Assembly (NCBI GenBank): GCA_964447495.1
Contig: CAYUTF010000046.1
Location: forward strand, 1 to 24,866
Reading direction: 5' to 3'
DNA: 24,866 nt
DNA from: an uncultured archaeon
Lineage (GTDB): Archaea > Asgardarchaeota > Lokiarchaeia > Sigyniarchaeales > SOKP01
Made by a program: the position numbers and the translations under genes. Each line of letters opens with the position of its first letter. The stretch's first letter is position 1. Of this stretch, positions 805 through 22,251 are shown piece by piece. The notes beneath the pieces were generated by a model. It was not told where the DNA came from. It saw only the letters and a program-made list of their open reading frames with translations, and searched no databases.

Positions 805-1410
805 TTATCTTACTAAAATTCCAAATTTTTTCTTATAAAGATAGATTCCAATAACAGAAAAGATAAGCATATAAAAGGAATAAACTTCGGTAAAGGAAGT
901 AGGTACAATTTCATATAAACCAGTAATAATATCCCAACGTTGGAAGTTGTCATAACTACTCATAAAAATTAAGAAAAATAAGAAACTCCACAGTAGATGT
1001 CTCTTACTTATTGGAATCTTTTGGTGAAGAATAATAAATAGTTGAAATAGACCAATTGCTAAATGAAGAATAGGGCCTACAATTAAACTAAATGCATCAA
1101 CAACTACAGAAATCATAGAAATTGCGATATTAATAAACCCATAAAACGTAATACAAGAAATTGTATTAAGTAATACCGATTCAAACTTAAATATGCAGGT
1201 TAAACCAATTAAAATTAAGCTCAAATAAGTTGTATATACGAGTGGTTCATACATTCTCACAATGAAAAAGAAATGTATCCAATAATAGACACATCCAATA
1301 AGAATTATCAATCCAAGGATGCTGAAAATAAGTTTAATTTTTTCATTCATTTCTACTATTATTCTAGGTTTGTAAATAGCTCGGGATAACTTTTTAGTAA
1401 ATTCAATCAT
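805..1410 (-). CDS. Hypothetical polytopic membrane protein
   Basis: About 6 hydrophobic segments. No recognised motif. The true start may be the internal Met (MNEKIK). Confidence 0.75.
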   Translation of the reverse strand: MIEFTKKLSRAIYKPRIIVEMNEKIKLIFSILGLIILIGCVYYWIHFFFIVRMYEPLVYTTYLSLILIGLTCIFKFESVLLNTISCITFYGFINIAISMISVVVDAFSLIVGPILHLAIGLFQLFIILHQKIPISKRHLLWSFLFFLIFMSSYDNFQRWDIITGLYEIVPTSFTEVYSFYMLIFSVIGIYLYKKKFGILVR

Positions 1411-1499
1411 TATACTTCAACCATTCTTTTTAAAAGATTTATAATTTGGTGCGAAAAGTGCATTGAATAAGGATTTAAATATATTACTATTAGGTCGAT

Positions 1500-2027
1500 C
1501 TATGCATATATATTTAGCTCTCTCTTAAAAACTTCATAATCTTGTTTTGAATATAAACAAAAAATTACTTCTTTAATCCGTGTGTCTCCTGATAAATATG
1601 CTTTACATGTTGCTAGCATGATTTTTGCACATTTCTCTATAGGATAGCCAAATATACCTGTAGAAATCGCTGGGAATGCAATTGTTTGAAGCATGTTTTC
1701 GTCCATAAGTTTAAGACTATTTAATGTTGCATTTTTTAATTTCTCATCCTCATTACCTTCTCCCATTCGCGGTCCAACGGCATGTATTACATGCTTTGCT
1801 TTCAAGCTTCCTCCAGTTGTAATTACTGCCCCTCCTACATACGTCCCTCCAATTTTGTTGCATTCTTCTTGAATTTTTATGCCTCCTTTTCTTCTTATTG
1901 CGCCAGCAACACCGCCTCCCATAATCAATTGTGAATTGGCAGCATTTACTATCACATCAGAATTTAATTCAGTGATATCTCCCTGAACTAGTAAAATATG
2001 TGAATTTTTTATCTTAAATTCCTTCAT
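1500..2027 (-). CDS. Macrodomain protein (MacroD/YmdB-type ADP-ribose binding/hydrolase)
   Basis: QGDIT, DVIVNAAN, GGGVAGAI, VIHAVGP, AFPAISTGIFGYP motifs. Confidence 0.95.
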   Translation of the reverse strand: MKEFKIKNSHILLVQGDITELNSDVIVNAANSQLIMGGGVAGAIRRKGGIKIQEECNKIGGTYVGGAVITTGGSLKAKHVIHAVGPRMGEGNEDEKLKNATLNSLKLMDENMLQTIAFPAISTGIFGYPIEKCAKIMLATCKAYLSGDTRIKEVIFCLYSKQDYEVFKRELNIYA

Positions 2028-2087
2028 AATTTTTTTGTGTATTTTTATTTGAAAATAATTATAATAAGAATATTAAAAAAAATTATT

Positions 2088-2837
2088 CTAATCTTCTGGA
2101 TTTTCTTGATTTTTCTTGAAAATCTCATCTAGTTTATTTCGATCTTCATCACTCATTTTACTCATTGCTTCCATGTTTTGCCTCATCAAATCCATCATTA
2201 CTTTTTGAGTGATTAACTGAGAGATAACCGGTAATGCGATTCTCATCCTCGTCAATTCATAGAACATTCTCTTTGCAGTATCTCTCATTTCTTTCAGTTC
2301 CTCTTTCGTCATTCCTTCTTCAGATAAACCGGGGCATTCCACATCGACTATAGTGAAATTTTTTCCATCATATTCTAAAGGATAAGTTCGACAACTAAGG
2401 GGGCGATTATCGTATATTAAGCATTCTTTCTTTTCTTTATTGTAGAGAGGGCATTTCTCTTCAAGGAGTTCTTCAATTGGAGTAGGACTAAAAGGATCCC
2501 TTTTTACTTCCGCCCCTTCTTTAGGTTTAGGGGGAAGAGGCTTCAATATCAAATCAACACTGCCATCAGGTTTATTATAAATATCTAGGTAGGGAAGAAA
2601 ATTAGCTACAACGCCATTTTTAGCCCACAATTCCAGATCATAAAATGTTATCGGTATAGGCCCTCGAGAGAGACAGCATTTATCGCATCGAGTACATTTG
2701 AAGGTAAATTTCGCTTTTGAAGGCATTTCTTCAAATTCTTGGGTATCTTTTTCTGTTATCGTTTCTTCTTCTTTAACTTCTTCTTTAACTTCTTCTTTTA
2801 TATCGGTATTCTGATTCTCGTCATTATTTTCTGACAT
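2088..2837 (-). CDS. YkgJ-family (CxxCxxCC) Zn/Fe cysteine-cluster protein
   Basis: FKCTRCDKCC...CPLY...CLIYDNRPLSCRTYP...CPGL; acidic N-terminal tail. Confidence 0.9.
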   Translation of the reverse strand: MSENNDENQNTDIKEEVKEEVKEEETITEKDTQEFEEMPSKAKFTFKCTRCDKCCLSRGPIPITFYDLELWAKNGVVANFLPYLDIYNKPDGSVDLILKPLPPKPKEGAEVKRDPFSPTPIEELLEEKCPLYNKEKKECLIYDNRPLSCRTYPLEYDGKNFTIVDVECPGLSEEGMTKEELKEMRDTAKRMFYELTRMRIALPVISQLITQKVMMDLMRQNMEAMSKMSDEDRNKLDEIFKKNQENPED

Positions 2838-2911
2838 ATATCCACACTTATTTATAATTTTATAATTTATTTCTATTTCAAGATTTTTTTCAAGGTTATG
2901 AATTTTCGGTC

Positions 2912-2920
2912 AAAAAAAAA
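2912..2920 (-). terminator. Possible archaeal oligo-U terminator of tbp
   Basis: A9 on the + strand about 44 nt downstream of the tbp stop, a similar spacing to the tract at 750-759. Confidence 0.3.
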
Positions 2921-2963
2921 TTTTACCCTTACTTTTTTAAGAATCATTCTATATAATTTCAAA

Positions 2964-3542
2964 TTAGTCTTTGAAAAGACCCTCATCTTTAATAAGTTTG
3001 CCAATATGGATTAAACAAGGCTCTATCACTTCCTTATTATTAATTCCTGTAAAAACAATTTTTCCTGTGCTAAAAATCAAAAATACACTTTTCACAGGAT
3101 TATTATTTTTATACATAAGACCAGGGAAGACTTCTGGTTCATATATCGCGTTTTCTAATACTACTGAGGCGAGGTCCAAATCAATTTTATTATGCAAATC
3201 AGCAGTTATCACAATATTCACTACTTTATACTCAACATTTTCTTTTCGCAATTTTATACTAACAATATTTTCACTATTAATTTGCTCTAATAAAAATACT
3301 AAGACATGATCGATATCGTCAAATTTTTTTAGTCCTGTTAAAATCATTTTACCATTTCTAAATATGATAAATACAGATTTAGGAAAATTAATTCGCAAAA
3401 AAAGTCCGGGAAAGCGACTAGGATTATAATTACAATTTTTCAAAGAAGATTGCACTTTTATTAAATTCAGACTTAGGTTTAGATTTAGCTTAACTACGAT
3501 GTTCTGTATTGAATACGTTAAACTATTTTTATTTTCATTCAA
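2964..3542 (-). CDS. tbp: TATA-box binding protein (divergent)
   Basis: Two TBP repeats: IQNIV...YNPSRFPGL...IFRNGKMILTG and VVNIV...YEPEVFPGL...IFSTGKIVFTG. TTG start. Confidence 0.93.
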   Translation of the reverse strand: MNENKNSLTYSIQNIVVKLNLNLSLNLIKVQSSLKNCNYNPSRFPGLFLRINFPKSVFIIFRNGKMILTGLKKFDDIDHVLVFLLEQINSENIVSIKLRKENVEYKVVNIVITADLHNKIDLDLASVVLENAIYEPEVFPGLMYKNNNPVKSVFLIFSTGKIVFTGINNKEVIEPCLIHIGKLIKDEGLFKD

Positions 3543-4833: not shown

Positions 4834-4937
4834 ATTTAAGCAAATTTTATAAAATATAAACTTAGTTGTTAATTAATATCAATAAAATTAAGAATTGCCT
4901 AATGCATCTAATTAAAGAATAAAAATAGTGATAATTA

Positions 4938-5840
4938 ATGTTAGAATATGAAAAAGAACAAAAAGTAGTTAATGTAGCAGGTGTAAAGATCGGAGGACAA
5001 CCAGGCGAAAATCCAACGGTTATGGTTGCTACAGTATTCTATACAAATCATGCAGCTTTATTGGATGAAAAGACAGGAAATATTGATAGGGAAATATTAG
5101 AGAGAGAATTAAATGAATACGAAGAAATAATTGAAGATACTGGTATGCAAGGTATTATTGATATTGTTGGAGGATATCCTGAAGCCTTAATTAAGGAATG
5201 TGAAATAGTTGCTGACTTAATCGATTATCCTTTTCTCGTTGATGGGTTGAATGATAGTGCTCGTATACCTGCTCTGAAAGGTTTAAAAGAGATTGGTTTG
5301 CTTGATCGCGCGATTTTGAATAGCATTGATGATGCTACTACCGATGAAAGCTTACAAAAATTAAAAAGTTATGGTGTTAAGAACGCTGTGTTATTAACTT
5401 TCGGAAATAGATACATATATCCTGAACAAAAGTTAAAATTCTTAAATGAAAGTTTGATTCCTAAAGCTAAAAACGCAGGGATTGAAAATATAATAGTTGA
5501 TACTGCGGTTTTGGATTTGCCTTCTATTAGCATCAATGCTGAAACTGTAAGATTAATTAAAACACAATTAGGAATACCTGCTGGATTTGCTCCGGCAAAT
5601 GCTATCTATGCTTGGAATTATGTGAAAAAGTATGGGGAATCCGCAAGATGTGGTGCAATTGCATCCTTAATGTCCTATTGTCTTAATTCGGGGGGAGATT
5701 TCGTGTTATATGGTCCAATTAAATTTGCAAAATGCATTATCCCGGCATTATCATTGCTATCAGCTGTAAATTCTTATTATAGAAAACGAATACTTCGAAA
5801 GAATATCTCTGAACGCACTCCACTGAGAAAAGTATTTTAA
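4938..5840 (+). CDS. mtrH: MtrH/MtgA-like pterin-binding methyltransferase
   Basis: EQKVVNVAGVKIGGQPGENPTV, AILNSI, IVDTAVLD, GFAPANA, GDFVLYGPI match the MtrH family. Confidence 0.88.
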   Translation: MLEYEKEQKVVNVAGVKIGGQPGENPTVMVATVFYTNHAALLDEKTGNIDREILERELNEYEEIIEDTGMQGIIDIVGGYPEALIKECEIVADLIDYPFLVDGLNDSARIPALKGLKEIGLLDRAILNSIDDATTDESLQKLKSYGVKNAVLLTFGNRYIYPEQKLKFLNESLIPKAKNAGIENIIVDTAVLDLPSISINAETVRLIKTQLGIPAGFAPANAIYAWNYVKKYGESARCGAIASLMSYCLNSGGDFVLYGPIKFAKCIIPALSLLSAVNSYYRKRILRKNISERTPLRKVF

Positions 5841-7342
5841 GAAATATATCTAAGCAGAAGATCTTGAGTTTGATTAAGAAAATGAGGTAAGTTATTATTT
5901 ATATTCAACTTTTTCTTTTCATCATCAAGTAAAAAGAGAATAAACATATCGGAATCAGATACCGTAATTCTTTTAAAAAATATCACAGAATTTGCTACTT
6001 TGAAAATAGCTTCATCCTTGTTAAGTGCTTTATATCTTGAAAAAATCTTAAATAACATCGCAAATTGTGGAGCAGTTATCTCGAAAACATTAATCATCTC
6101 TTCTGATTTTGGCATTTCTGTTAGACTCATAGCTTCAGGGGTATAGTAATCTGCTAGAACTAACCCATCCATGCTTAAGAGTAATGATAGATATGTTTCT
6201 GTCTGTGTTGAAAATCTACTTAAATTATATTTGATAAGATCTCGATTTGGGCTTAGTTTTGAAATGCCCGAAGAAAAGGCTCTTAAAATAGAGAATAATT
6301 GAAATATACTGGTGTTATAAATCTCGGGTCTTCCTTCTCGCGAAATCTTTTTCAATTCTTTAGAAATTTCTTTGATATTTTCTTTTATTTGAACAGTCTC
6401 AATAATGTCAGGATCTCCCTTAGACAAAATGAAAATTATTGGAGTTTCTTGTTCAAAACTGTCTAAAATTTTCTTTATTTTACTAAAATATTCAATACTT
6501 TCTTCAAATCTGTTACGATTTTTAATATCTATGAAATAAAATAATAAATCCGCTTCATATAAATAGAGCTGTGCTTTACTTAAATATTTCTTACGTAAGC
6601 TTAATTGACCGCCTAAATCCCATAAAAAAATCGTGGCTCCCAAAGCCTCGATTGAATTCACTTTCGCTCCTTTCGTCGGTTTTAGCCCGATTAACTTTGA
6701 ATATTTTCTATCTACCGAGAGTAAGAAAGATGTTTTTCCAGAGTCATCAAGGCCAGCCATAATAATTTTCAATTTCCTATGAGCCGAAATGGGAGTAGTG
6801 GGTGCATGTTCGATTGATAAGATTTCAGTAACAAGGGTTTTAAATAAGGGCTCAACATAATCTTGAGGTTTAAATTCTTGGCTAATTTCTTTATCAAATT
6901 CTTTAAAAAAATCAAGAATTAATATTTTAATCCTCTCAATATTATTGTACAAAAAACTTCTTTTTGTTTCATCTATTAAAATAGAAAATGCTGATGGTAG
7001 GGGATTTTCATTGAACTTTTGATCTGAGAAGTGAAAATAGGTTAAGGAAGTTAATTTATAATCAGGAAACGGAATAATACCAAAATATTGATAATTAGAC
7101 ACATCTTTTTTTTCTAAAATACTTCCGTCTCCAATTAATAGGCTTAAATTTTTAATAGAGATTTGAGTTGCATCTCTAGTAGTTAAATATACAATATCAT
7201 TCTCTATCTTATGTGAAGGATTTGTATTATCCTTATTATTCTTTATAACTTTAGGAAAGACGTAAATTGCTTGAGGCCCTAGTTCACCATAGGCTGAAAA
7301 AACTATTGATTTGATAATTGAGGATTTAATTAATTCTTCCAT
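5837..7342 (-). CDS. Longin/uDENN-like + small GTPase (Arf/Rag-like) + roadblock-like fusion protein
   Basis: G1 GLDDSGKTS, G2 KPTKG, G3 WDLGGQ, G4 SKGD, G5 TSI. N-terminal SIVFSAYGELGPQAIYVFP. C-terminal LLSMDGLVLA roadblock-like hairpin. Stop overlaps the convergent mtrH stop by 4 nt. Confidence 0.85.
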   Translation of the reverse strand: MEELIKSSIIKSIVFSAYGELGPQAIYVFPKVIKNNKDNTNPSHKIENDIVYLTTRDATQISIKNLSLLIGDGSILEKKDVSNYQYFGIIPFPDYKLTSLTYFHFSDQKFNENPLPSAFSILIDETKRSFLYNNIERIKILILDFFKEFDKEISQEFKPQDYVEPLFKTLVTEILSIEHAPTTPISAHRKLKIIMAGLDDSGKTSFLLSVDRKYSKLIGLKPTKGAKVNSIEALGATIFLWDLGGQLSLRKKYLSKAQLYLYEADLLFYFIDIKNRNRFEESIEYFSKIKKILDSFEQETPIIFILSKGDPDIIETVQIKENIKEISKELKKISREGRPEIYNTSIFQLFSILRAFSSGISKLSPNRDLIKYNLSRFSTQTETYLSLLLSMDGLVLADYYTPEAMSLTEMPKSEEMINVFEITAPQFAMLFKIFSRYKALNKDEAIFKVANSVIFFKRITVSDSDMFILFLLDDEKKKLNINNNLPHFLNQTQDLLLRYIS

Positions 7343-8393: not shown

Positions 8394-8403
8394 AGGTATT
8401 GTA

Positions 8404-9129: not shown

Positions 9130-9146
9130 AAAAATGAAATAATAAT

Positions 9147-10415
9147 TTAGTGTATATCGGCACTTGGTTTGAGTTCTGAATATTTCAAGTTTCCTTTTGC
9201 TATCGTTCGATTATCATATCCCAATTTTAACACTTGAAAGCTAATGATAAACGGAATTATACTTAACATGCTTAAAAAGATGCCATAAAATGAATTATTC
9301 GGGAGAGCAAGAAGTATGCCTCCAACAATAGGTCCAAAAATTTGAGAAAGATTATCTAATGAGCTACTTATGCCCATAATTTTACCTTGATTTCGAAAAT
9401 CTACAGAGCGACTGGTAAATCCTATAGTTATACCCCTTGATGTAGCTCCACTGAAGCTTATATAAAACAATATTAATACAAGTTGCCACAATTCAGACAC
9501 AAATCCTAATAAGAAGTATGAAAGAATAAAGCTAGCTAATCCTAACATTGCCGTTTTCGGATCTCCTAAATAGTTTCGCAATTTATTGAATGCTAAACTA
9601 CGAAAAATTACTTGAAAAAGCCCCATTGAAGTCAATAATAATCCGATCATTTGTTCATTTAGATTTAACCTTAAGAAACCAAATAGACTAAAGGTGCCTT
9701 GAAACACGCCAGCAGCTAAAACAATAAATGTATATTGAATTAGTAAAATCATTGCATTCTTATTCTTATATACAGGAGTTGATTTGTTATCAATATTGAT
9801 TTTTAAAGTGTCATGTTCTTCTAAAACCACAATGTTCTTTTTATTAATTTTCATAGGAAGAGACTCTTTCAAAAATAAACCTGTAAATAACATAGTGAAG
9901 ATAGCTAAAATACTGGCTAATATCGCAGGCCCAGCGATCCCAAAAGAAGATAGAAATCCTCCCAATGCGGGACCAATAAGAAACGCCAATGTAAATGTTA
10001 CCCCAATATTAGTCATTTGTTTAGGACGATCTTCGGGAGGGACAACATCTCCAATGACTGCTTTAGAAATTGGAAACTGACCACCAAAGATTCCATCAAC
10101 TATACGAGCAATAAATAAGGTTTCAATATTATTCGCAAAAATTAATATAATAAACCCTGCAATAGTTCCAGCCTGTGAGATTAGAAGTAAAGGCTTTCTT
10201 CCATAAATATCACTTAGCTTGCTTAAAATAGGACCAAAAAAAAATGCGAAAATAGCATTCGAACTCAGTAGTAAACCTATTACAACTGGATTTGTATTGA
10301 ATTCATTTAGAAAAAAGGGTAAAAACGGTAGAATAATACTAAAACCTAATATATCAACAAAAACTGCAATCCAAAGAGGAGCAAGATTAGAGTATTTCAA
10401 AGAAAATCTCTTCAT
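9147..10415 (-). CDS. MFS transporter, TetA/DHA1-like
   Basis: About 12 TMs; motif A SKLSDIYGRK, ARIVDGIFGG, motif C IGPALGG. Confidence 0.92.
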   Translation of the reverse strand: MKRFSLKYSNLAPLWIAVFVDILGFSIILPFLPFFLNEFNTNPVVIGLLLSSNAIFAFFFGPILSKLSDIYGRKPLLLISQAGTIAGFIILIFANNIETLFIARIVDGIFGGQFPISKAVIGDVVPPEDRPKQMTNIGVTFTLAFLIGPALGGFLSSFGIAGPAILASILAIFTMLFTGLFLKESLPMKINKKNIVVLEEHDTLKINIDNKSTPVYKNKNAMILLIQYTFIVLAAGVFQGTFSLFGFLRLNLNEQMIGLLLTSMGLFQVIFRSLAFNKLRNYLGDPKTAMLGLASFILSYFLLGFVSELWQLVLILFYISFSGATSRGITIGFTSRSVDFRNQGKIMGISSSLDNLSQIFGPIVGGILLALPNNSFYGIFLSMLSIIPFIISFQVLKLGYDNRTIAKGNLKYSELKPSADIH

Positions 10416-10627: not shown

Positions 10628-11641
10628 ATGACTTTCAGAGTTGGTCTTATAGGGAAAGGGAATGTTGGATCATGTTTTCTTGAACTTCTAAAAGCTAAAG
10701 AGAGTTTTATGAAGGATACATTAAATGAGAAAGTAAAGATTACCGGGATCTTTAAGTCAGATGGGGCTCTACTAGATGATCAAGGATTAAATATATCAAG
10801 AGTTATAGCACATAAACATGAAATTAATACAATGGAACAATGGCATGCAAATATTTCAGCCAAAAAATGTTTATCTAAAGAGAACTTTGATATAATTGTA
10901 GAGACTACTCCAACAAACCCAAAAACGGGAGAACCTGGAATATCTCATATTCTCGGGGCATTGAATAATAAAATTGATGTTATTGCTTCAAATAAGGGAC
11001 CATTTTTTTTATATTATAAACAGATCAAAGAACTTGCAAAAAAGAAGCGTCTCTTTCTCAAATTTGATGCCACTGTAGCGTGTTGCCTCCCAATCATATC
11101 TATAAAAAAATTACTCCCCGGAAATGAAATCATTAGCATTCAAGCTATACTTAATGGTACTTCTAACTACATTCTTAGTAAAATGACAAATGATGGATTA
11201 GAGTTTGATATAGCTCTACAAGAGGCTCAAAGTTTAGGTTACGCTGAATCAAATCCTTTTCTTGACATATATGGATTAGATTCAGCAGGAAAAATTGTTA
11301 TTTTAGCAAATGAGTTGTTAGGTTGGTCGAAAAGTATAAATGATGTCCAGACAAAAGGCATCTCTGATATTTCTCTCCAAAAGATTAAATCTGTTAGTTC
11401 AAACGGACAAGTTATTAAACTAATCTCAAAAGCGAAAGATGATAAATTAATTGTTGAACCTTGTTTAATAAAGAAGGATTCTTTATTGAATTTAAATGGA
11501 AATTTTAACGGAATTATTCTTGAAACACGGTATGCAGGTCCGATTGTATTAATAGGAAGAGGCGCAGGGGGATATGAAGCGGCTTCTGCTATATTAAATA
11601 ATTTAATTGAAATAATACAGAACAGAGTCCAAGCTGTTTAA
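10628..11641 (+). CDS. hom: Homoserine dehydrogenase (no ACT domain)
   Basis: GKGNVG, ASNKGP, LNGTSNYIL, GYAESNP..D..G.DSAGK, GRGAGG.EAASA. Confidence 0.9.
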   Translation: MTFRVGLIGKGNVGSCFLELLKAKESFMKDTLNEKVKITGIFKSDGALLDDQGLNISRVIAHKHEINTMEQWHANISAKKCLSKENFDIIVETTPTNPKTGEPGISHILGALNNKIDVIASNKGPFFLYYKQIKELAKKKRLFLKFDATVACCLPIISIKKLLPGNEIISIQAILNGTSNYILSKMTNDGLEFDIALQEAQSLGYAESNPFLDIYGLDSAGKIVILANELLGWSKSINDVQTKGISDISLQKIKSVSSNGQVIKLISKAKDDKLIVEPCLIKKDSLLNLNGNFNGIILETRYAGPIVLIGRGAGGYEAASAILNNLIEIIQNRVQAV

Positions 11642-11684: not shown

Positions 11685-12242
11685 ATGAATTTTAATTTTA
11701 AAAAAGAAGTTAAAGCAACAGTTTCTATTATTGGGACCAGCGAGATTGATGATAAAACGAGAAGAATTGTTGTTAAATTAGGAAGGTTACTCGCTGAAAA
11801 TGGTTATGCAATAGCATGTGGAGGATTATCTGGGGTAATGAAAGCCGTCTGTGAGGGAGCCAAGGAAGCAGGGGGTTTAACGATAGGAATCATTCCTTTT
11901 AAAGAAAAAAGTTTAGCAAATGAATTTGTTGATATTGTAATTCCCGTTCCTTTTTCACAAGCAAGAAATATAGTTGTAGTTTTATCCGGAGATATTTGTG
12001 TTGCAATTGGTGGAAAAGCGGGAACCTTATCTGAAATGTGTTTTGCATGGATATATGAAAAGCCTATAATTGCTATGAACGATATAGAAGGCTGGTCCTC
12101 TAAGATTGCAAATCAGAAAATTGATGACAGACGAGATGACATAATCCATGGTGCGAAAACACCAGAAGATGTTATTAAAAAAGTAAATCAGCTTATCTAT
12201 GATAAAAATTTAAATTATTCGAATCCTGAAGGAAATTTTTAA
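11685..12242 (+). CDS. LOG/SLOG-family Rossmann protein (TIGR00725-like)
   Basis: CGGLSGVMKAVCEGAKEAGGLTIGIIP, ARN, GGKAGTLSE. Confidence 0.9.
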   Translation: MNFNFKKEVKATVSIIGTSEIDDKTRRIVVKLGRLLAENGYAIACGGLSGVMKAVCEGAKEAGGLTIGIIPFKEKSLANEFVDIVIPVPFSQARNIVVVLSGDICVAIGGKAGTLSEMCFAWIYEKPIIAMNDIEGWSSKIANQKIDDRRDDIIHGAKTPEDVIKKVNQLIYDKNLNYSNPEGNF

Positions 12243-12247
12243 GAAAG

Positions 12248-13609
12248 ATGATAATGTTTCATTCTACTAACTATAAAAGCCCAGAAGTTGATTTTCAAAC
12301 AGCAATTTTGCAAGGGCAGGCTGTAGATAAGGGATTATATATGTTAAATACGATTCCAAAATTAAGTGGAACTATTTTATCCTCTTTCCCAGAATATTCC
12401 TTTCAGACAATTGCACTTGAAATTTTAAATCTTATTATTGAAAAGGTTATTCCGTACGAGACATTAAAAGAAATTGTATCAAATGCTCTTAATTTTGATA
12501 TTCCTATAGAAAAATATGGGCAATATGATTATATCTGCTTTTTAGATAAAGGTCCAACCGCTAGTTTTAAAGATTTTGGAGCTAGAATCTTAGCAAGGTT
12601 GTTAGAATACATTTTAGATTTAGAAAATAAAAATATCATTATATTAACTGCGACTTCAGGTGATACAGGAGGCGCTGTTGCTCAAGCTTTTCATTTGATG
12701 AATCATATTCAAGTGGTTGTGCTCTATCCAAAGAATGAAATAAGTACTTTACAAAGAACACAAATGACAACATTAGGAGATAACGTCACAGCTCTAGGAA
12801 TAAATGGAAAATTTGATGATTGTCAAAGAATTGTAAAAAAGGCATTTGCAGATAAACATCTGAAAGATTTAAATTTGTGTTCGGCTAATTCCATAAATTT
12901 TGGAAGATTATTACCTCAAACAACATATTATTTTTGGAGTTATTCTCGAATAGCAAAATCAGTAAAGGAAAAAGTAATTTTTTCAGTTCCTTCTGGAAAT
13001 TTTGGTGATCTTACAGGAGGGCTACTCGCATATAGAATGGGTTTACCTGTCAAAAGATTTATTGCTGCAGTAAATGAAAATAATGAATTCCCCAAATTCT
13101 TGCAAACGGGAGAATATGAAAAAGTGGAACCATCGAAACATTGCATATCTAATGCTATGAATGTGGGTCATCCTTCTAATCTTGCAAGAATTTTTGATTT
13201 ATATGGAGGACAAATTGATGAGAATGGAACTGTTATTAAAAAACCAGATATGAATACACTGAGAAAAGATATTATGTCTTATTCTATCTCTGACTCTTTG
13301 ACAAAGCAGACGATTATTGAATTTTATAAGAAATATCAAAGAATTATTGAGCCTCATGGTGCCGTAGGCTGGGCAGCACTTCAAAAATATCGTGGAAATT
13401 TTCCCGAGCATAATAAATTTAAATCTATTTGCTTTGAAACCGCCGATCCAGCGAAATTTCCAGAGGAAATAATTCCTATAATACATATTGAACCAAAAAT
13501 TCCTTATTCTTTAAAAAATATTCAAAATAAAAAAGAAATAGTTATTCCAATAGAAATTATAGAATACCAAGATTTTAAGGCATTTTTACAAAAGAAATAT
13601 AAAGAATAA
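12248..13609 (+). CDS. thrC: Threonine synthase, long E. coli/yeast-type
   Basis: GQAVDKGLY N-domain, GPTASFKDFG (PLP Lys), ATSGDTG, SANSINFGR, VPSGNFG, SNAMNV, ETADPAKF. Confidence 0.95.
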   Translation: MIMFHSTNYKSPEVDFQTAILQGQAVDKGLYMLNTIPKLSGTILSSFPEYSFQTIALEILNLIIEKVIPYETLKEIVSNALNFDIPIEKYGQYDYICFLDKGPTASFKDFGARILARLLEYILDLENKNIIILTATSGDTGGAVAQAFHLMNHIQVVVLYPKNEISTLQRTQMTTLGDNVTALGINGKFDDCQRIVKKAFADKHLKDLNLCSANSINFGRLLPQTTYYFWSYSRIAKSVKEKVIFSVPSGNFGDLTGGLLAYRMGLPVKRFIAAVNENNEFPKFLQTGEYEKVEPSKHCISNAMNVGHPSNLARIFDLYGGQIDENGTVIKKPDMNTLRKDIMSYSISDSLTKQTIIEFYKKYQRIIEPHGAVGWAALQKYRGNFPEHNKFKSICFETADPAKFPEEIIPIIHIEPKIPYSLKNIQNKKEIVIPIEIIEYQDFKAFLQKKYKE

Positions 13610-13673
13610 TTTCTTCAAATCTTACAAAAGAATATATTTAATAATTGTCTCATATTTGCTAGGTGAATTTATT

Positions 13674-14636
13674 TTGGAAATTCAATATCTTTCTAAAGAA
13701 AAAAAAGAAACACCAGAGCCCCAAAGCAAGATACTCTTTACAGGATTGGATGCAGCAGGAAAGACATCGATTATTTTAGCCCTTCAGAGAGAATTTTCTA
13801 AAATAGCCCTCTTAAAGCCTACCAGAGGAGCACAGAGAAGGATCTTCGAATTTTTAGGGCGAGAGATAGCAGAATGGGATCTTGGTGGCCAGATTAGTTA
13901 TAGAATTAGTTATCTTAAAAACCCTGGAAAATATTTTGATGGAACTGAGATTGCTATTTATGTTATAGATATTCAAAATAAACCGAGAATTCCAGAGGCT
14001 ATGAGTTATTTTAAGGATGTTGTAGATCAGTTTAGAAAGCTTGAAATTGAACCTCCAATATATGTCTTTTTCCACAAATACGATCCTGCATTAAGACGTA
14101 ATGCTATGAACGAATTTAAGACCCTTGAAGTCGATCTAAAGGAGAAATTAAGAAAGTCTGTAGATTATAAACAAATCTATTACTATAATACCTCCATATA
14201 TGACTTAAATTCAATTATTAGTGCTATGTCTGAAATATTGCTAAATTTATATCCAAAAGCAGAATTAATTAGTAAAACTATTCATGAATTTGCCAAAAAA
14301 GTTGATTCTGAAGGGGTAGTCGTTATTGACGATAATTCCCTTATCATTGGGTCTTATTATAAAGATGAGGAAACTAAAAACCTATTGTCCGCATCAACGC
14401 CATATTTTCTTACCCTTAATGACAGTTTTCAATTCACTCAAGTCATACCCGGAAAAATTCAAGAAGAAGGAAAAATGGTGGTGCAAAGATTTGGAAGAAA
14501 TTTTATATTCAAAACACTAAATATCCGAGGATCAAACACACCCTATTACTTGCTCATGTTAAAAGGAGATCCAAACATTGATAAGGAAGATTTTGATTCT
14601 TTTGCTAACTTAATGACCGAACTCTTATATAAATAG
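13674..14636 (+). CDS. Rag/Gtr-like small GTPase with a C-terminal roadblock domain
   Basis: G1 GLDAAGKTS, G2 KPTRG, G3 WDLGGQ, G4 HKYD, G5 TSIYD; C-terminal VVVIDDNSLIIGSY. Start moved from 13656 to the in-frame TTG at 13674 because AGGTGA (13661-13666) sits 7 nt upstream. Confidence 0.87.
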   Translation: MEIQYLSKEKKETPEPQSKILFTGLDAAGKTSIILALQREFSKIALLKPTRGAQRRIFEFLGREIAEWDLGGQISYRISYLKNPGKYFDGTEIAIYVIDIQNKPRIPEAMSYFKDVVDQFRKLEIEPPIYVFFHKYDPALRRNAMNEFKTLEVDLKEKLRKSVDYKQIYYYNTSIYDLNSIISAMSEILLNLYPKAELISKTIHEFAKKVDSEGVVVIDDNSLIIGSYYKDEETKNLLSASTPYFLTLNDSFQFTQVIPGKIQEEGKMVVQRFGRNFIFKTLNIRGSNTPYYLLMLKGDPNIDKEDFDSFANLMTELLYK

Positions 14637-14814: not shown

Positions 14815-15768
14815 ATGATTATCTGTAGTAATTGTGGCGCTACTAATAACGAAACAGATGGCAATATATGTAGGAAATGTGGAGCATTACTTCCAATATC
14901 ATCTAAACCGACTCGTATAAGACTTACATTACCTAAAAAAAAAGAAGTTAAGCCAAAACAATCCAAAACTATCGATAAACCAATTGAAATTAAGAAGCCA
15001 AAAGTGTCAGAACTTAAGGAAATACCTCACGGAAAAATTGAAAACGTAGAATCAGAACCGGAGACTTTTAAAGAAGAAGTATATGAGGAAGCTATAGAGA
15101 TAGATAAAGGCGATGAGAGAGAATTCTTAACTGAGATAACACCCAAACCCTTTAATGGCTCAATTATTGCTTCAAAGGGAATATATTATTCGACATCATT
15201 AAGCAAGCCTGACTTTAGTGAGGCTAAAACACCTCATTCAGAATCTACGCTTATGAAACAGAAACAATTAGAAGAAGATATGACAAAAGTATTGCGTTTT
15301 CTTTCAAAAAAGATAACTGTTCAAAAATTACCAACAGAAATGACAGCTGAAACGAAAAAACAAAAAGAAGAGGCAATACCACCTTCAAGTATGAGCGAAA
15401 TTCTGAAAGAGTTGTTGAAATTAGATTTACATATTGAAGCATCAGCAATTATCAAAAAAGACGGAACTATATTAGCATCAGCAATTTCTTCACGAATGTC
15501 AGATTCCTTATTTGCCACGATTGGTCAAAATTTATCAATGATAGGAACAGATATTATTGAGGGTTTGAGCGCAGGCAAGTTAATGAATATTTCGGTACGA
15601 GGATCTAAAGGTGTGGTTGATCTTGCGCCTATAGATGCAGAGAATTCTTTGGGGAGCGATATGATCCTTATTATATTCTCATCACCGAGAGTTAAGTCAG
15701 GTATTATAAATTTTGCTGCAAATATAGTAAAAAAGCAAGTAAAACAATATTTAGGTTTATCAAAATAA
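14815..15768 (+). CDS. Zinc ribbon + charged linker + roadblock/LC7 domain protein
   Basis: N-terminal CSNC...CRKCG; K/E/P-rich linker; C-terminal IEASAIIKKDGTILASA...NISVRGSKGVV...LIIFS roadblock pattern. Confidence 0.85.
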   Translation: MIICSNCGATNNETDGNICRKCGALLPISSKPTRIRLTLPKKKEVKPKQSKTIDKPIEIKKPKVSELKEIPHGKIENVESEPETFKEEVYEEAIEIDKGDEREFLTEITPKPFNGSIIASKGIYYSTSLSKPDFSEAKTPHSESTLMKQKQLEEDMTKVLRFLSKKITVQKLPTEMTAETKKQKEEAIPPSSMSEILKELLKLDLHIEASAIIKKDGTILASAISSRMSDSLFATIGQNLSMIGTDIIEGLSAGKLMNISVRGSKGVVDLAPIDAENSLGSDMILIIFSSPRVKSGIINFAANIVKKQVKQYLGLSK

Positions 15769-15774
15769 CTAATA

Positions 15775-16575
15775 TTATAGCAATTGTTTTTGTATATGTA
15801 ATTTATTGATTTTAATTGTTTTAAAATAGTAGAGATTATATGGCAGTTCTTGTAAAAAGGAATTAAAGTTAGATATCCCTACAATGGGTACTGAATTTTC
15901 ATTAATCTTTATCCAATTATTTTCTAAAGTAACCATAAGGGGAATTATAATGAAAGGTGGTTTTATTTTTTGGATTTTTCTAATACCTAATATTGATAGG
16001 ATCATCTCTGAAAGAATTTCCAAATTATTTTTGAGAGCTAACCCTCGTCTAAACTGTAAATTTGCTGCTTTATTGATTGCACTATATGAATCTTTCCGTT
16101 TCCATTGCTTGCAATCAATGAGCAAAATTTTATTTCTATCAATCCCAATTACATCAATCTCATATTTGGATTGATGGGTTTTTGATTTAAAATTTGATTT
16201 ATCTGAAAATCTGTAATTTTTAGAAGTATAATAATTGTTTTCCATCAAAATTAGTCTAACCAATGCTTCAAAACCATCATAATTTAATAAGTTTGAAAGA
16301 AAAGTAATGTCATATTGAAGATACTTAAAGCTTCGAATAATAAATAGAATCTTATTTATTACAAGATATTCAATATAATTTCCCTTTTTAATAGAAACAA
16401 AGTCAAAATACGAAACAACTTCTATTATTTCATCTTGAGCAAACTCATTAAAATATTCAATATCTGACATTTCACACCAAATTTCCGTTACTTCAGGGGT
16501 GGATTGTTTCAATATCGAATAAATATCATAAAAAAATTGTTTTAATGAAGATTCTGAAAACAAATCATCTTGCAT
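15775..16575 (-). CDS. PD-(D/E)xK nuclease, Mrr/NERD-like
   Basis: FEALV...YEIDVIG...LLIDCKQW motif arrangement. Confidence 0.75.
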   Translation of the reverse strand: MQDDLFSESSLKQFFYDIYSILKQSTPEVTEIWCEMSDIEYFNEFAQDEIIEVVSYFDFVSIKKGNYIEYLVINKILFIIRSFKYLQYDITFLSNLLNYDGFEALVRLILMENNYYTSKNYRFSDKSNFKSKTHQSKYEIDVIGIDRNKILLIDCKQWKRKDSYSAINKAANLQFRRGLALKNNLEILSEMILSILGIRKIQKIKPPFIIIPLMVTLENNWIKINENSVPIVGISNFNSFLQELPYNLYYFKTIKINKLHIQKQLL

Positions 16576-16785: not shown

Positions 16786-18579
16786 ATGCACCTATTGCCA
16801 AAAGTCTTTAGATCTGAAGGAGATGTTGTTGATTTTGACACCTTAAAAATTCTTGAGAGTATAATTAAAGAAACTGGTATGCAAGAAGAGGAAGCAAAGC
16901 ACGTTACTGAACTTGTAGTAAGAAGAATTATAAGCTCTGGAATAAAATTCCTTTCAGGACCACATATAAGAGAAATAGTTTGTTCAATTTTATCTGAAAA
17001 TCATTATGAAGAAGAGAGAAAATTATATACTCGCATTGGAATGCCGTTAATGGATTATGAGGATATTTTAGAAAAAGTAGATACCAATGATATTAAAAAA
17101 GTAATAAACCCCGAAAAGATACACCATTGGGCAGCTAATAAATTAGCTGAAGAGTATACGTTGTTAAGAATATTAACAGATGAAGAATCCAAAGCACATT
17201 TATTCGGTGACATTTACATTCATCAACTAAAATATTTTGATCTAAGACCATATGAACATAATTGGGATCCTAGAATTATTTTAAAATATGGGATACCCCC
17301 CACTGATTATGACTCCTTTTCATATAAAGTTGGACCTCCACAGAATTTAAGAGAAGCATTAAATCAATTAGCTAATTGGTCCGGGTTGATTCAAAATGAA
17401 TTTTCGGGACATCAAGCATTTAATCATTTAACAATTTTTTTAGCTCCCTTTATTGGTACTTTATCAGAATCCACAATTCGAAATGAACTGAAAACTTTTA
17501 TTTATGAGATTAATCATTTATCTGCTATATCGGGCAAAAGATACCTTAAATCTTCAATAGAATGTTATCCAACAATAACTAACTATTTTCTAGATGAACC
17601 AGCTATTGGTCCTCATGGGAAAATATATGGTACTTATAAAGATTATACTTCTGAATGTGTAAAACTTTTTGATGGTTTTATAGATATATTTACGGAAGGA
17701 GATTATTATTCCAATGCATTTCATTATCCTTTACACAAGATATATTTCAACAATGAATGCTTAAAGACGTATCATGATTTATATTTGAAAGTTGTTAATG
17801 AAATTAATACAAATCATACTCCCCTGTTAATAAATTCATTCTTCTCTGAAACTCATAGACCAGATGCAACAAACAATTCTTCAAAATATCTAAACAGTGG
17901 AATACTTCAAAAAATAACCATCAACTTACCCCGGATAGCATATTTAAATACTGATGAGGTTAAATTTTTAGATGGTTTAACGCTAAAGCTACGCTTGAGC
18001 GCTGAAATTTTAAATAAAAAATACGAAATAATCAAAAAAAGACTTTCCACAAACCATTTACCATTATGTAATAGTTTGATTGAAAACAACACTTTATATC
18101 AGCTAAAGAATCAAGATTTATGTATAGGATTCGTTGGCTTAAACGAAGCTATTAAAATAATGACTGAAAGTATGATGCACGAAAACTCCACATCATTTGA
18201 TTTAGGCAAGCGTATAATATCTGAAATGGTAAATATTTGCAGTGAAATGTCAATAAAGTTTAATAAAAGTTATAGTTTAATAGAAGACTCCTCAGAAAGA
18301 GCAATCGAGAGATTCGTTAAATTAGATCAAAAGCATTTTCCTGAAATTTCAATGGAATATTATAGTAATTCAACTAAATTCGACAAGAGAATTGATATTG
18401 ATTTATTTAAAAAATTAGAGTTACAAGGTACCTTTCACTCCTTAATCAAGCACGGAGCTAAAGAGGAAATTTCCCTCAAAAAAGCCAAATCTCAATATCA
18501 TAATGATGATGCTTTTTTAGAGTTTTTAGACATGATTTGCATGAAAACAAAGATAAAGAGTCTGAAATTTGTAAAATAA
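16786..18579 (+). CDS. ATP-cone + class III (anaerobic) ribonucleotide reductase homolog, probably catalytically inactive
   Basis: ATP-cone LPKVFRSEG...IREIV; NrdD motifs AHLFGDIYIH, QNEFSGHQ, ITINLPRIA, IGFVGLNEA, YYSNST. The C-terminal Zn-binding CxxC motifs and the RxxGY glycyl-radical motif are absent. Confidence 0.85.
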   Translation: MHLLPKVFRSEGDVVDFDTLKILESIIKETGMQEEEAKHVTELVVRRIISSGIKFLSGPHIREIVCSILSENHYEEERKLYTRIGMPLMDYEDILEKVDTNDIKKVINPEKIHHWAANKLAEEYTLLRILTDEESKAHLFGDIYIHQLKYFDLRPYEHNWDPRIILKYGIPPTDYDSFSYKVGPPQNLREALNQLANWSGLIQNEFSGHQAFNHLTIFLAPFIGTLSESTIRNELKTFIYEINHLSAISGKRYLKSSIECYPTITNYFLDEPAIGPHGKIYGTYKDYTSECVKLFDGFIDIFTEGDYYSNAFHYPLHKIYFNNECLKTYHDLYLKVVNEINTNHTPLLINSFFSETHRPDATNNSSKYLNSGILQKITINLPRIAYLNTDEVKFLDGLTLKLRLSAEILNKKYEIIKKRLSTNHLPLCNSLIENNTLYQLKNQDLCIGFVGLNEAIKIMTESMMHENSTSFDLGKRIISEMVNICSEMSIKFNKSYSLIEDSSERAIERFVKLDQKHFPEISMEYYSNSTKFDKRIDIDLFKKLELQGTFHSLIKHGAKEEISLKKAKSQYHNDDAFLEFLDMICMKTKIKSLKFVK

Positions 18580-18726
18580 GTTACGACGTAATTAAATTTA
18601 TTAACACTTACTTTATTCATATATTAATTTTAATATATATTGAAATTTGAAAGGGAATTTTAATCATCTCTGCTTCGACTAGTCTATTTTATATAATCAG
18701 ACCATGCGCTAAATAATAGTGATATA

Positions 18727-20139
18727 ATGACAGAACAAAAAAAAGAAATTATTACATCGATTGTATTTAGTTTATTTGATGATGATGGACCGACGCCCAA
18801 AGTTTATTGGCCAGAAGATTTAGATGAATCAGCGCGTTTATTAATTGCAATGAAAACTATAAGTTTACTAATGGGGGATTCAATATATCAAAATGGTACT
18901 AGTATTGAAGGAATTGCCTATTTTGGCGTCTTACCTTTTCCAGATTTAAAATTAAATGGCTTAACATACTTTTTTCTAATTCCTGATGAAAATGCTCGGG
19001 GTAATGCGAAAGCAGCGACCATAACAATTTTGACTGAAGAAGCAAATAAAATCTTTTTTTATGAGAATATGAAATATTTAAGAGTTATCATTGATACTGC
19101 CGCATCCAAAATTCAATCTCAAAATACTTATGATCAAAATAAAAAGATCTTATATGGGCTTAAACAAGAGTTATTTGAATTTACAAATGAAATTAAAGAT
19201 CCTTTCTCAGTGAAAAGACAGCTTAAAATTTTATTCACTGGGTTGGATCGAGCGGGAAAAACGAGTTTTCTACTTGCGGTTAAAAAGAGATATTCAGAAA
19301 TTATAAAAACCTTACCAACTAAAGGTATATCACGAACAGAAGAGAGATTATTCGAAGAACAAAATTCGCAGATATCTATTTGGGATTTAGGAGGACAAAA
19401 AAAATATCGCGAGAGATTTCTCGAGCAAGGTAAGGTATATCTCTATAATGTAGACTTATTATTTTATTTTATTGATATCCAAGATAGTGAGCGAATTGAA
19501 GAATCTATCTCTTTATTTTTAAAAATAATAAATTCTCTCAGAGAATTTGAAGAATTTCCTCCTATTGTAATTTGTATAAATAAACTGGACCCTGATTTGA
19601 AAAAATCAAAGGAGATTAATAAGAACCTCGATTTTATCAAAAATGAGATAATGAAAAATTCTCAAAATTATTTCATAAAAATATTTCAAACTTCAATCTT
19701 TGACCACTGGAGTCTTATCTCAGCATATTCATTTGGTTTATCGCAACTTAGTCCAAATCGTGAATTATTTAAGAACCAACTGCGAAATTTTTCCAAAAAG
19801 ACCCATTCCGATGCCACACTTCTATTAAACGAGAATGGAATTATTTTATCTAATTACTCAAACTCAGATATAGCAGATAAAGTATTTGAAATTTCAGCTC
19901 CTCATTTTCAAACTTTATATAAAACCTTTAAAGAATTTAAAATACTAAAAAAAGACTTTATTATTACTTCTGGAATAACAGATGAATCAAAAAGAATTGT
20001 CTTTCAAAAGATTGGAGTAGAAAAATATAATCTCTATCTATTATTATTTATGGATATAACAGAAAAAATAGAAAAAATCGAAAAACATTTACCGAAATTG
20101 GCGAATAATTTAAAAGATTTGATCAAAACCTATATTTAA
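18727..20139 (+). CDS. Longin/uDENN-like + small GTPase (Arf/Rag-like) + roadblock-like fusion protein; paralog of 5837..7342
   Basis: N-terminal SIVFSLFDDDGPTPKVYWP; G1 GLDRAGKTS, G2 PTKG, G3 WDLGGQ, G4 NKLD, G5 TSI; C-terminal LLLNENGIILS. Shares KTISLL.GD, YFG..PFPD, LSPNR.L and VFEI.AP.F-type blocks with the paralog. Confidence 0.88.
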   Translation: MTEQKKEIITSIVFSLFDDDGPTPKVYWPEDLDESARLLIAMKTISLLMGDSIYQNGTSIEGIAYFGVLPFPDLKLNGLTYFFLIPDENARGNAKAATITILTEEANKIFFYENMKYLRVIIDTAASKIQSQNTYDQNKKILYGLKQELFEFTNEIKDPFSVKRQLKILFTGLDRAGKTSFLLAVKKRYSEIIKTLPTKGISRTEERLFEEQNSQISIWDLGGQKKYRERFLEQGKVYLYNVDLLFYFIDIQDSERIEESISLFLKIINSLREFEEFPPIVICINKLDPDLKKSKEINKNLDFIKNEIMKNSQNYFIKIFQTSIFDHWSLISAYSFGLSQLSPNRELFKNQLRNFSKKTHSDATLLLNENGIILSNYSNSDIADKVFEISAPHFQTLYKTFKEFKILKKDFIITSGITDESKRIVFQKIGVEKYNLYLLLFMDITEKIEKIEKHLPKLANNLKDLIKTYI

Positions 20140-21609: not shown

Positions 21610-22251
21610 TTGATTTATAAAATTTATTTAATTGATGGGGATAACGGTATATCTATATTAGAAGCGTCTTTTAAGGATTTTAAAGAAAGTAAGATTAATA
21701 AAGGTATCATCCCTGGTTTTTTTAAAGAAATTAACCGAATCATTGATAATATTCAAGATGCGATGGCAAAAGGAGAGAAAAAGGATGAATTATTGCGAAC
21801 TGTTGAATCCGAAAACTCAATTATTATTATATTTTACCATCCCTATTCAAGGATTTTGTTTTGTTCAATTTCTGACGCTGATGATAACAAAGATCGCTTA
21901 ATTGAAGTAATACGGAAAATTGCCAACAGATTTTGGAAAAAGCATAAATCAGATATTGAAGTATTTAGAAATACTACTGATAAGAGTAGATTCCAAACAA
22001 TTATTACAGATATAGAAAATCTAACTCATGGAGGAACCATAGCTGAAGTATTTCCTAAATTGTTGATCGCAGAAAGTGTATTAAAGAAGATAATTTCAAT
22101 GGGAATGATAAGTGAGGAGGAATTTCAAATAGCAATTAAATGTAACGGAGAGACTTCCCCGCTTGAAATATCAAGAATATTTGGTAAAACGAAATTAGAG
22201 ATTTATGAGGCTTTAAAAAAGTTGGAACAATTAGATATCATTCAAATTTAA
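21610..22251 (+). CDS. Longin-like domain + C-terminal winged-helix protein
   Basis: N-terminal IYLIDGDNGISIL, helix PGFFKEI, three beta strands, helix IRKIANRFWKKH (longin topology judged by eye). C-terminal CNGETSPLEISRIFGKTKLEIYEALKKLEQLDII wHTH pattern. TTG start. Confidence 0.7.
   Translation: MIYKIYLIDGDNGISILEASFKDFKESKINKGIIPGFFKEINRIIDNIQDAMAKGEKKDELLRTVESENSIIIIFYHPYSRILFCSISDADDNKDRLIEVIRKIANRFWKKHKSDIEVFRNTTDKSRFQTIITDIENLTHGGTIAEVFPKLLIAESVLKKIISMGMISEEEFQIAIKCNGETSPLEISRIFGKTKLEIYEALKKLEQLDIIQI

Follow-up and report, generated by a model that had tools for sequence, protein, structure and literature searches.

A conserved, selected pseudoenzyme related to the class III ribonucleotide reductase NrdD, with a predicted ATP-cone, in Lokiarchaeia

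The window analysed in this study is a stretch of 24,866 nucleotides (nt) from an uncultured archaeon of the Asgardarchaeota (Lokiarchaeia; Sigyniarchaeales; SOKP01), positions 1 to 24,866 of contig CAYUTF010000046.1 in assembly GCA_964447495.1, which comprises 3.8 Mb and is 98% complete. Within this window, whose G+C content is about 30%, positions 16786 to 18579 encode a shortened paralog of NrdD, the catalytic subunit of the class III, anaerobic ribonucleotide reductase (RNR). We found that this protein of 597 amino acids (aa) is a conserved pseudoenzyme that has been kept by selection. We consider it most likely, with a probability of roughly 0.6, that it descends from a duplication of NrdD and acts as a non-catalytic regulator or sensor based on its ATP-cone. 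The parts of the gene on which the argument turns are as follows.

16786..18579, plus strand: the whole gene of the short NrdD paralog, 597 aa with an ATG start in the list of open reading frames (ORFs); C-terminally short and radical-less
16786..17085, plus strand: the predicted ATP-cone, aa 1-100, a hairpin and four helices in the AlphaFold2 secondary structure; the most conserved part
17077..17106, plus strand: the linker at the position of the NxN substrate flap, where alignments place a variable stretch opposite the canonical NENANQD, so that the motif is lost
17107..17280, plus strand: the first core helices and the HxH-type region, aa 108-165; the second most conserved block by windowed conservation and by the ratio of nonsynonymous to synonymous substitution rates (dN/dS)
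17254..17256, plus strand: the codon of E157, at the aligned position of the first-strand catalytic Cys (RPF-C in the canonical NrdD)
17821..17910, plus strand: the finger-loop remnant, aa 346-375, where the alignments show a deletion of the QCCR (SCCR-type) motif and of some 20 residues after it
18562..18579, plus strand: the C-terminal end, LKFVK and stop, at the last barrel strand in the alignments, with no Zn ribbon or glycyl-radical domain

Membership of the NrdD family is supported by both sequence and predicted structure. The preliminary description, made from the nucleotide sequence, had reported an uninterrupted 597-aa ORF with an NrdD barrel, and the ORF list agrees with it, as does a match to Pfam NRDD (PF13597) at 1.3e-67, in which aa 106-592 correspond to model positions 6-501 of 562. 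The score against the NCBIfam NrdD equivalog TIGR02487 is 206.2 bits, below the cut-off of 326.35. The protein shares 48% identity with the canonical NrdD of its own genome in a pairwise alignment, and its solved relatives by sequence are class III RNRs throughout. An AlphaFold2 model computed with 82 relatives as input reached a predicted local distance difference test score (pLDDT) of 86.7 and a predicted template-modelling score (pTM) of 0.79; its weak regions are confined to aa 83-91 and aa 356-365, with the minimum confidence at aa 356-365. A Foldseek search with this model returned the NrdD structures of P. copri, S. thermophilus, T. maritima and T4 (template-modelling (TM) scores 0.64-0.71; best match 8p28_A, E 4.8e-26), and class I RNRs were far weaker matches. 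Neither Pfam nor the model revealed a Zn ribbon or a DNA-binding domain in the protein, and no alternative catalytic motif was recognised in it with Pfam and NCBIfam profiles.

Three catalytic elements had been described as missing, and the alignments bear out each absence. First, where a Cys normally follows the IHIHDL-type motif, the protein has E157, which aligns with the Cys of the canonical RPF-C; among 114 short relatives the residue at this position is S in 54, N in 21, E and T in 16 each, C in 2 and another in 5. Second, the finger loop is shorter by 26-28 residues than that of the canonical NrdD, the QCCR motif and the segment downstream of it are gone, and aa 346-375 of the protein contain no Cys. 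The canonical QCCR of this genome resembles the SCCR motif of T. maritima-type NrdD, which in those enzymes precedes a disordered segment (available text of PMC4493059). The N-x-G-x-x-Q stretch ahead of NLPR is retained, and its residues N370, G372 and Q375 are invariant in 82 sequences. Third, the protein stops at the last barrel strand, exactly where the canonical NrdD runs on with CxxC..CPxC and RITGYY. When the C-terminal 68 aa of the canonical protein were used as query, no NrdD-type glycyl-radical domain was found in the 147-nt gap after the gene or elsewhere in the genome; the Pfam Gly_radical matches in the genome are six full-length PFL-type enzymes (794-889-aa frames on six contigs). 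Thus, no Cys aligns with the finger-loop position and no separately encoded glycyl-radical subunit was found.

A fourth loss goes beyond those three: the NxN flap, which is among the most conserved NrdD motifs and contacts the substrate (accessible part of PMC11226230). At the position of the HxHD-type triphosphate-binding motif, the protein reads YIHQ and the consensus of its family is HIHK; the canonical paralog has HIHM and is itself without the Asp. In the alignments, two further substrate-contact elements, the Glu that follows P-S/A and the leading His of HxH, are likewise gone or variable in the short form. Because the first-strand Cys, the SCCR motif, the NxN flap and the Zn-ribbon/glycyl-radical domain are all lost, the short NrdD is, judged by its sequence, unable to reduce nucleotides.

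Has this gene simply decayed? Forty related genomes included ten further species of the genus with an ortholog; these proteins are 599-629 aa long (one reads 564 aa, cut by a contig end), are 50-55% identical to the window's protein and share its three losses. The best 120 relatives in the databases, taken as 90%-identity clusters, include 114 short forms, and the CC motif is absent and the end point the same in 114/114; the databases name them 'anaerobic ribonucleoside-triphosphate reductase' or hypothetical. A class-wide search gave short-form matches in 74/161 genomes, all of one family: 18 in the genus of the window, 45 of the 54 in a second genus and smaller numbers in four more. Four of the 74 are a different form, truncated in situ, so that about 70 genomes carry the window-type short NrdD; one further genome was added through locus mapping. 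A tree of 32 sequences unites the short forms in one clade (SH-like approximate likelihood ratio test 100), which is sister to the canonical NrdDs of the genus and has much longer branches.

The substitution pattern is that of a protein under constraint. In four close pairs (dS 0.33-0.42; Nei-Gojobori), the short NrdD has a dN/dS of 0.19-0.21, compared with 0.075-0.107 for the canonical NrdD and 0.06-0.13 for two neighbouring GTPases in those pairs. Broken down by region, the ratio amounts to 0.05-0.15 in the cone, 0.05-0.14 in aa 101-165, 0.10-0.23 in the N-terminal half of the barrel, 0.18-0.32 in its C-terminal half and 0.19-0.75 in the finger-loop remnant. Conservation, measured as majority-residue frequency in 20-aa windows across 112 near-full-length relatives of 560-640 aa, all with the losses described above, peaks at aa 41-100 (0.86-0.96) and aa 121-160 (0.82-0.85) and is lowest in the finger-loop remnant (0.41) and at the C-terminus. 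The barrel residues N370, G372, Q375, N380-L-P-R383, K411, K412, R419, G451-L452, D514 and H517 are invariant in 82 sequences. Selection therefore maintains the protein; most of the constraint falls on its first 160 residues and is strongest in the ATP-cone and the initial core helices. Recent decay or an assembly error would have been suggested by full-length orthologs and a dN/dS near 1; instead, the orthologs share the losses and dN/dS is 0.19-0.21.

Three NrdD-family genes are present in the genome: the canonical one, the short form in the window and a 649-aa paralog with a winged helix-turn-helix (wHTH) domain. A second, canonical nrdD, which it had been proposed to look for, lies on another contig.

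L001, ORF 1144..3267, other contig: canonical NrdD, 707 aa, with RPF-C, QCCR, CxxC..CPxC and RITGYY

As had been noted, the window contains no nrdG; an NrdG2-type activase (158.6 bits, above the cut-off) is encoded on another contig and would serve the canonical NrdD. The short NrdD offers such an activase no site, because the Gly loop is absent. The genome also encodes a class II RNR, and since the canonical NrdD, the NrdG2-type activase and the class II RNR are all present, it does not need the short NrdD as an enzyme. The earlier view of a selected pseudoenzyme is thus upheld by intact orthologs with the same losses, by the low dN/dS and by the canonical nrdD elsewhere in the genome. The 649-aa wHTH paralog (L003:400-2349) has a DUF7347/HTH_20 wHTH, a weak ATP-cone and a degenerate barrel, and it too ends ahead of any glycyl-radical domain; relatives in frames of 650-690 aa occur in most genomes of the genus, and the gene after it resembles, by eye, that for aspartate carbamoyltransferase. 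This paralog is probably a nucleotide-sensing transcription factor. Only four ORFs genome-wide carry an ATP-cone.

We next consider the N-terminal domain. In the AlphaFold2 model, the cone fold is composed of strands at aa 6-8 and 14-16 and helices at aa 19-30, 34-51, 58-71 and 75-84. The identity between short and canonical cones is 0.78-0.81, matching the 0.785 found among the short forms themselves; the first core helix is about 62% identical between the two, and the barrel only 0.39. The Foldseek alignments of the model reach cone-bearing NrdD structures. The cone is slightly more similar to the canonical cone of the same genome (0.806) than to others (0.775); concerted evolution of the two cones was considered on this account and set aside, as the within-genome excess of just 3 points is too small to build on. 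In StNrdD, the nucleotide-contact residues of the cone are K19 and R20 in the hairpin, I32 in helix 1, Q79 at a Gln/His position in helix 3 and Y98 in helix 4 (available sections of PMC12662201), and a low-confidence alignment, in a comparison with solved NrdDs that is unreliable around the specificity-site region, suggests that K19, I32 and Y98 are kept as R9, I22 and Y81. We conclude that aa 1-100 are predicted to adopt the ATP-cone fold, with nucleotide binding putative for the short and canonical paralogs alike. According to the accessible text of PMC12662201 and PMC11226230, the cone of working NrdDs acts by positioning a flap over the active site, and dATP induces the pairing of NrdD cones (PMC12662201). 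Since the short form has lost the flap motif, its cone would have no such output in its own chain, and its output would have to reach another molecule.

The surroundings of the gene provide a further view of the cone. The flanking features are the following.

18727..20139, plus strand: downstream neighbour, 470 aa, with a longin/folliculin-like N-terminus and a Gtr1/RagA-like GTPase (Pfam Gtr1_RagA 1.4e-24, Folliculin 5.2e-4)
15775..16575, minus strand: upstream divergent neighbour, 266 aa, NERD-like and PD-(D/E)xK-like (Pfam NERD 7.5e-4, sub-cut-off)
18580..18726, plus strand: the 147-nt spacer before the GTPase gene, with a TATA-like TTTATATAA, read by eye, about 30 nt ahead of the ATG

The TATA-like element would be a promoter of the GTPase gene, and by eye each gene of the pair has apparently its own. 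In all 22 mapped short-NrdD loci, from eight genera, the gene occupies a slot between the NERD-like gene and the longin-Rag-like GTPase. That the short NrdD lies on the same strand directly upstream of the GTPase, as previously pointed out, holds in 21/22 of these loci, the remaining one having an inserted 221-aa ORF. The order Rag-like GTPase, Zn-ribbon protein, NERD-like gene (minus strand), short NrdD and longin-Rag-like GTPase is found in 10/10 loci of the genus, in 10/12 loci of five more genera and in one further genus. A census of 44 mapped loci with the NERD-like/GTPase pair found the short NrdD in 22, a 141-160-aa stand-alone ATP-cone protein (SA1) in 9, another SA-type protein in 2, a 162-aa cone-only gene in 2, an unrelated ORF in 1 and nothing in 8; an ATP-cone gene thus fills the slot in 35/44 loci.

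L052:9047-9469, minus strand: an SA1 locus; others are L053-L056 and L088-L091
L101:2383-2871 and L102:2376-2864, adjoining the GTPase: the 162-aa cone-only genes

SA1 has one long C-terminal helix. Its gene in the slot faces the other way from the short NrdD, starting about 100 nt ahead of the NERD-like gene and sharing the strand of the latter. It occupies the slot in five genomes of the window's genus that have no short NrdD and in four of the second genus. At 69% identity or more to the query, SA1 was found in 22 genomes, none of which has a short NrdD (0/22), and no short-NrdD genome has SA1. When four flanking proteins from 29 loci were combined in one tree (1421 columns), the SA1 loci fell into two separate, well-supported clades nested among the short-NrdD loci; therefore, at least two swaps occurred, or one swap and a transfer. 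A structural model of SA1 (pLDDT 83.6) had as its best PDB matches NrdR cones, which were weak (E 1.2e-3 to 9e-3, TM 0.45-0.49). The further SA-type cone-only gene was mapped in the slot at two loci of one genus, with two more by coordinates, and the 162-aa gene, which carries the NrdD-type cone signature, at two loci of another genus. SA-type cones cluster away from the NrdD type (support 94), and the 162-aa form joins the NrdD type (support 84) and looks to be derived from the short NrdD. We had considered SA1 as a shrunken, inverted short NrdD and rejected this, as its TAPLIRE-type signature, its hairpin insertion and, with moderate support, its clustering are shared with the stand-alone cones of other families. 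Because cone-only proteins occupy the same slot when the short NrdD is absent, the cone with its following helix would be the functional core.

How might such a protein have arisen, and what might it do? The gene probably arose when the SCCR-type NrdD of its family was duplicated, and the copy then lost the first-strand Cys, the SCCR motif with its mobile segment, the NxN flap and the Zn-ribbon/glycyl-radical domain. The barrel is retained as a scaffold under looser constraint than the cone and the initial core helices. Like RNR and NrdR cones, the cone would bind adenine nucleotides and pass its state to a partner, probably one shared with the cone-only proteins of the slot; candidate partners are the RNRs at work in the organism or the proteins encoded on either side of the slot.

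Several observations weigh against a cone-based regulator or sensor. The 'clear' ATP-cone of the preliminary description scores 20.0 bits against Pfam ATP-cone (PF03477), under the gathering threshold of 25.8, and R20 and Q79 of StNrdD correspond, in the same low-confidence alignment, to S10 and V65. The cone of the canonical paralog is likewise sub-threshold at 23.1 bits, with an identical pattern of kept and lost residues at the five positions. We nevertheless retain the cone assignment because of the predicted fold, the identity of about 80% to the canonical cone and the Foldseek matches. A function of the cone alone, moreover, leaves the continuing purifying selection on the barrel unexplained. 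Eight mapped loci, from four genera, have the GTPase and an empty slot, so the neighbours do not need the cone protein; and since synteny extends over the entire block of about 12 genes throughout the family, adjacency by itself carries little weight. Finally, the division into SA-type and NrdD-type cones comes from a tree of 147 columns whose supports of 84-94 lie below the tool's 95% mark.

The alternative that survives best, although we think it improbable, is that the short NrdD serves the working class III RNR as a regulatory subunit, pairing with the canonical NrdD through the dimer interface of the barrel, through cone-cone contacts or through both, and so tuning its activity or allostery. 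It would then be comparable to other dead paralogs that are partners of active enzymes. The close similarity to the canonical protein in the cone (about 80%) and the first core helix (about 62%; barrel 39%) fits such pairing, together with the slightly closer match to the cone of the same genome (0.806 vs 0.775); in NrdD, the effector site and the dimer interface lie along the first core helices (available text of PMC4493059), and the pairing of NrdD cones under dATP offers a possible contact (PMC12662201, as far as accessible). Against this, the gene is unlinked to nrdD or nrdG in this genome, the cone-only replacements in the slot have neither barrel nor dimer interface, and the other dead NrdD lineages of the class occur in genomes without a canonical NrdD match. 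Two of five short-NrdD genomes searched with Pfam NRDD, G103 (92% complete) and G085 (96%), show only the short form and the HTH paralog. The selected pseudoenzyme of the interpretation first offered stands, and this result weakens its 'regulator of the real NrdD' version.

Somewhat less probable still is that the protein is the nucleotide-sensing input of one of its neighbours, the longin-Rag-like GTPase or the NERD-like nuclease-fold protein. The near-constant position just ahead of the GTPase in the same orientation (21/22 loci, eight genera) agrees with this, as does the occupation of the slot by cone-only proteins, of another lineage in 11 loci and derived from the short NrdD in 2, with at least two independent SA1 swaps. 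The genome of the window has only four ATP-cone ORFs, and in 8/11 genomes of the two main genera that have neither short NrdD nor SA1, the GTPase ortholog is missing as well. However, the empty slots stand beside the GTPase in 8 loci of four genera, and the GTPase ortholog is far commoner, in 114/135 genomes of the family, than the genes of the slot. Given the block-wide synteny, co-loss and adjacency may reflect one deletion or one inheritance. The apparently separate TATA-like promoters and the opposite strand of SA1 also argue against a tie, and the stand-alone cones of other families of the order are not linked to GTPases, one family's overlapping a class II RNR. A complex prediction with GTPase aa 1-400 and the full 597-aa protein gave scores of 0.00 and 0.00, without controls, and counts neither way. 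Repurposed enzyme folds sense nutrients upstream of eukaryotic Rag GTPases. It is conceivable, if doubtful, that an ATP-cone module, carried by a dead NrdD in the window and by cone-only proteins in the same slot elsewhere, senses nucleotides for a longin-Rag-like GTPase switch of Asgard archaea; if so, it would be a prokaryotic counterpart of those repurposed-enzyme sensors and would tie ATP/dATP status, and thus the DNA-precursor or energy state, to a eukaryote-like signalling module.

That the protein is still an enzyme, performing non-radical chemistry such as nucleotide hydrolysis or binding-coupled chemistry in what remains of the barrel, seems to us very unlikely. A barrel dN/dS of 0.10-0.32 and several barrel residues invariant in 82 sequences would fit it, but the NxN flap and the two other substrate-contact elements named above are gone or variable, barrel-less cone-only proteins fill the same slot, and no other catalytic motif was recognised. 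A functionless, decaying nrdD duplicate or an assembly artefact can practically be dismissed: the gene does diverge more rapidly than those around it (between species of its genus, 50-55% identity vs 66-77% for the GTPases) and is lost or replaced in many genomes, but its ORFs, of about 600 codons against a background of 30% G+C, are intact in about 70 genomes, its dN/dS is 0.19-0.21, and identical deletions and the same end point recur in 114 clusters from many assemblies.

Other features of the window and of the mapped loci were also recorded. Three Gtr1/RagA-like GTPase genes lie within 15 kb, at 5837..7342 (minus strand), 13656..14636 (plus) and 18727..20139 (plus), interleaved with genes for a homoserine dehydrogenase (10628..11641), a SLOG/LOG-like protein (11685..12242) and a threonine synthase (12248..13609). 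Two further genes of the conserved block are found at 14815..15768 (plus), with no family match other than an N-terminal zinc ribbon and, by eye, a roadblock-like C-terminal half, and at 21610..22251 (plus), with a winged-helix-like C-terminus by eye and no family match. The NERD-like protein matches CARF_PDDEXK in PADLOC at 1.5e-5 over aa 130-178. We considered a defence-system reading of the slot and rejected it, as this weak PD-(D/E)xK match was all that PADLOC gave, with nothing for the short NrdD, SA1 or the GTPase. One genome, G132 (L084, L085), has two full copies of the block in one assembly, one of them near-identical to that of a genome of another genus (branch lengths 0.006-0.009), which suggests a mixed or contaminated assembly.

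Stand-alone cones also occur away from the slot. A second type, SA2 (L092:5916-6356), lies elsewhere and co-occurs with the short NrdD. In other families of the order, the stand-alone cone genes have no GTPase gene next to them, and in one family a cone gene of 185-200 aa overlaps the start of a class II RNR gene by 4 nt, which suggests co-translation.

L060:7042-7599 then 7596-9878, and L062:6755-7357 then 4476-6758: cone gene overlapping class II RNR gene

Unusual NrdDs are found in other lineages of the class. In another family of the order (L063:7306-9534 and L064:7189-9267, both minus strand), a full-length NrdD that keeps its C-terminal domain carries N or D where the radical Gly would stand, has lost its Cys motifs, QCCR among them, and has S or A for the first Cys; it lies at the canonical position, with HisRS upstream and a MazG-like gene downstream, in genomes with no other NrdD match. 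Part of one genus has a truncated, 624-aa NrdD at the MazG position (L077:5935-7809, L086:5934-7808) that keeps the first-strand Cys and has no NxN flap, finger-loop motif or glycyl-radical domain; its genomes have no other NrdD match and carry the 162-aa cone-only gene beside the GTPase. The database protein P0107 (689 aa) has the C-terminal domain and no finger-loop motif. Canonical nrdD itself was found in frames of 1186-1190 aa in which the match is split (G013:C36, G014:C211, G105:C83, G128:C15, G138:C207), which suggests an intein; because of the split, the canonical gene of those genomes is invisible to a strict single-match protein search.

Radical chemistry has been lost, with cone and barrel retained, several times in Lokiarchaeia, the wHTH paralog being among the cases. 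A literature search found no description of dead NrdD proteins, although supplements could list them, and neither the accessible text of the RNR family survey PMC9669993 nor that of the Asgard GTPase paper PMC10933270 mentions such proteins. Since annotation pipelines label the short NrdD 'anaerobic ribonucleoside-triphosphate reductase', anaerobic RNR may be over-counted in metabolic reconstructions of Lokiarchaeia. The short NrdD would be a natural case of an allosteric cone outliving its enzyme, and the graded series of full NrdD, dead NrdD with a Gly-less C-terminus, truncated NrdD and cone-only protein opens the stand-alone function of the cone to study. Asgard Rag-like GTPases are many and their roles are described as unknown (PMC10933270, as far as accessible); for Asgard biology the slot protein is a concrete, testable candidate for what might talk to them.

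How does the short NrdD compare with known systems? Its nearest counterpart is the SCCR-type NrdD of its own genome. The solved NrdDs of P. copri (8p23/8p28), S. thermophilus (9d3x) and T. maritima (4coi/4col) have a homologous cone, linker helices and 10-stranded barrel. Like them, the short form keeps the NLPR strand and the barrel-filling N-x-G-x-x-Q stretch; unlike them, it has no first-strand Cys, SCCR motif, NxN flap, Zn ribbon or glycyl-radical loop, and it evolves several times faster than canonical NrdD. Dead RNR subunits are also known from class I: yeast Rnr4 is a dead small subunit that pairs with Rnr2, and the betaherpesvirus R1 homologs are dead RNR subunits with new roles. The short NrdD resembles both in being derived from an RNR, in having lost its catalytic residues and in being kept by selection; those proteins stem from class I subunits, whereas the short NrdD belongs to class III, and to our knowledge none of them is a class III NrdD or is defined by a retained ATP-cone. 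NrdR, the bacterial RNR repressor composed of a Zn ribbon and an ATP-cone, is likewise non-catalytic with the ATP-cone as its conserved core; unlike NrdR, the short NrdD has no Zn ribbon and carries a whole dead RNR barrel.

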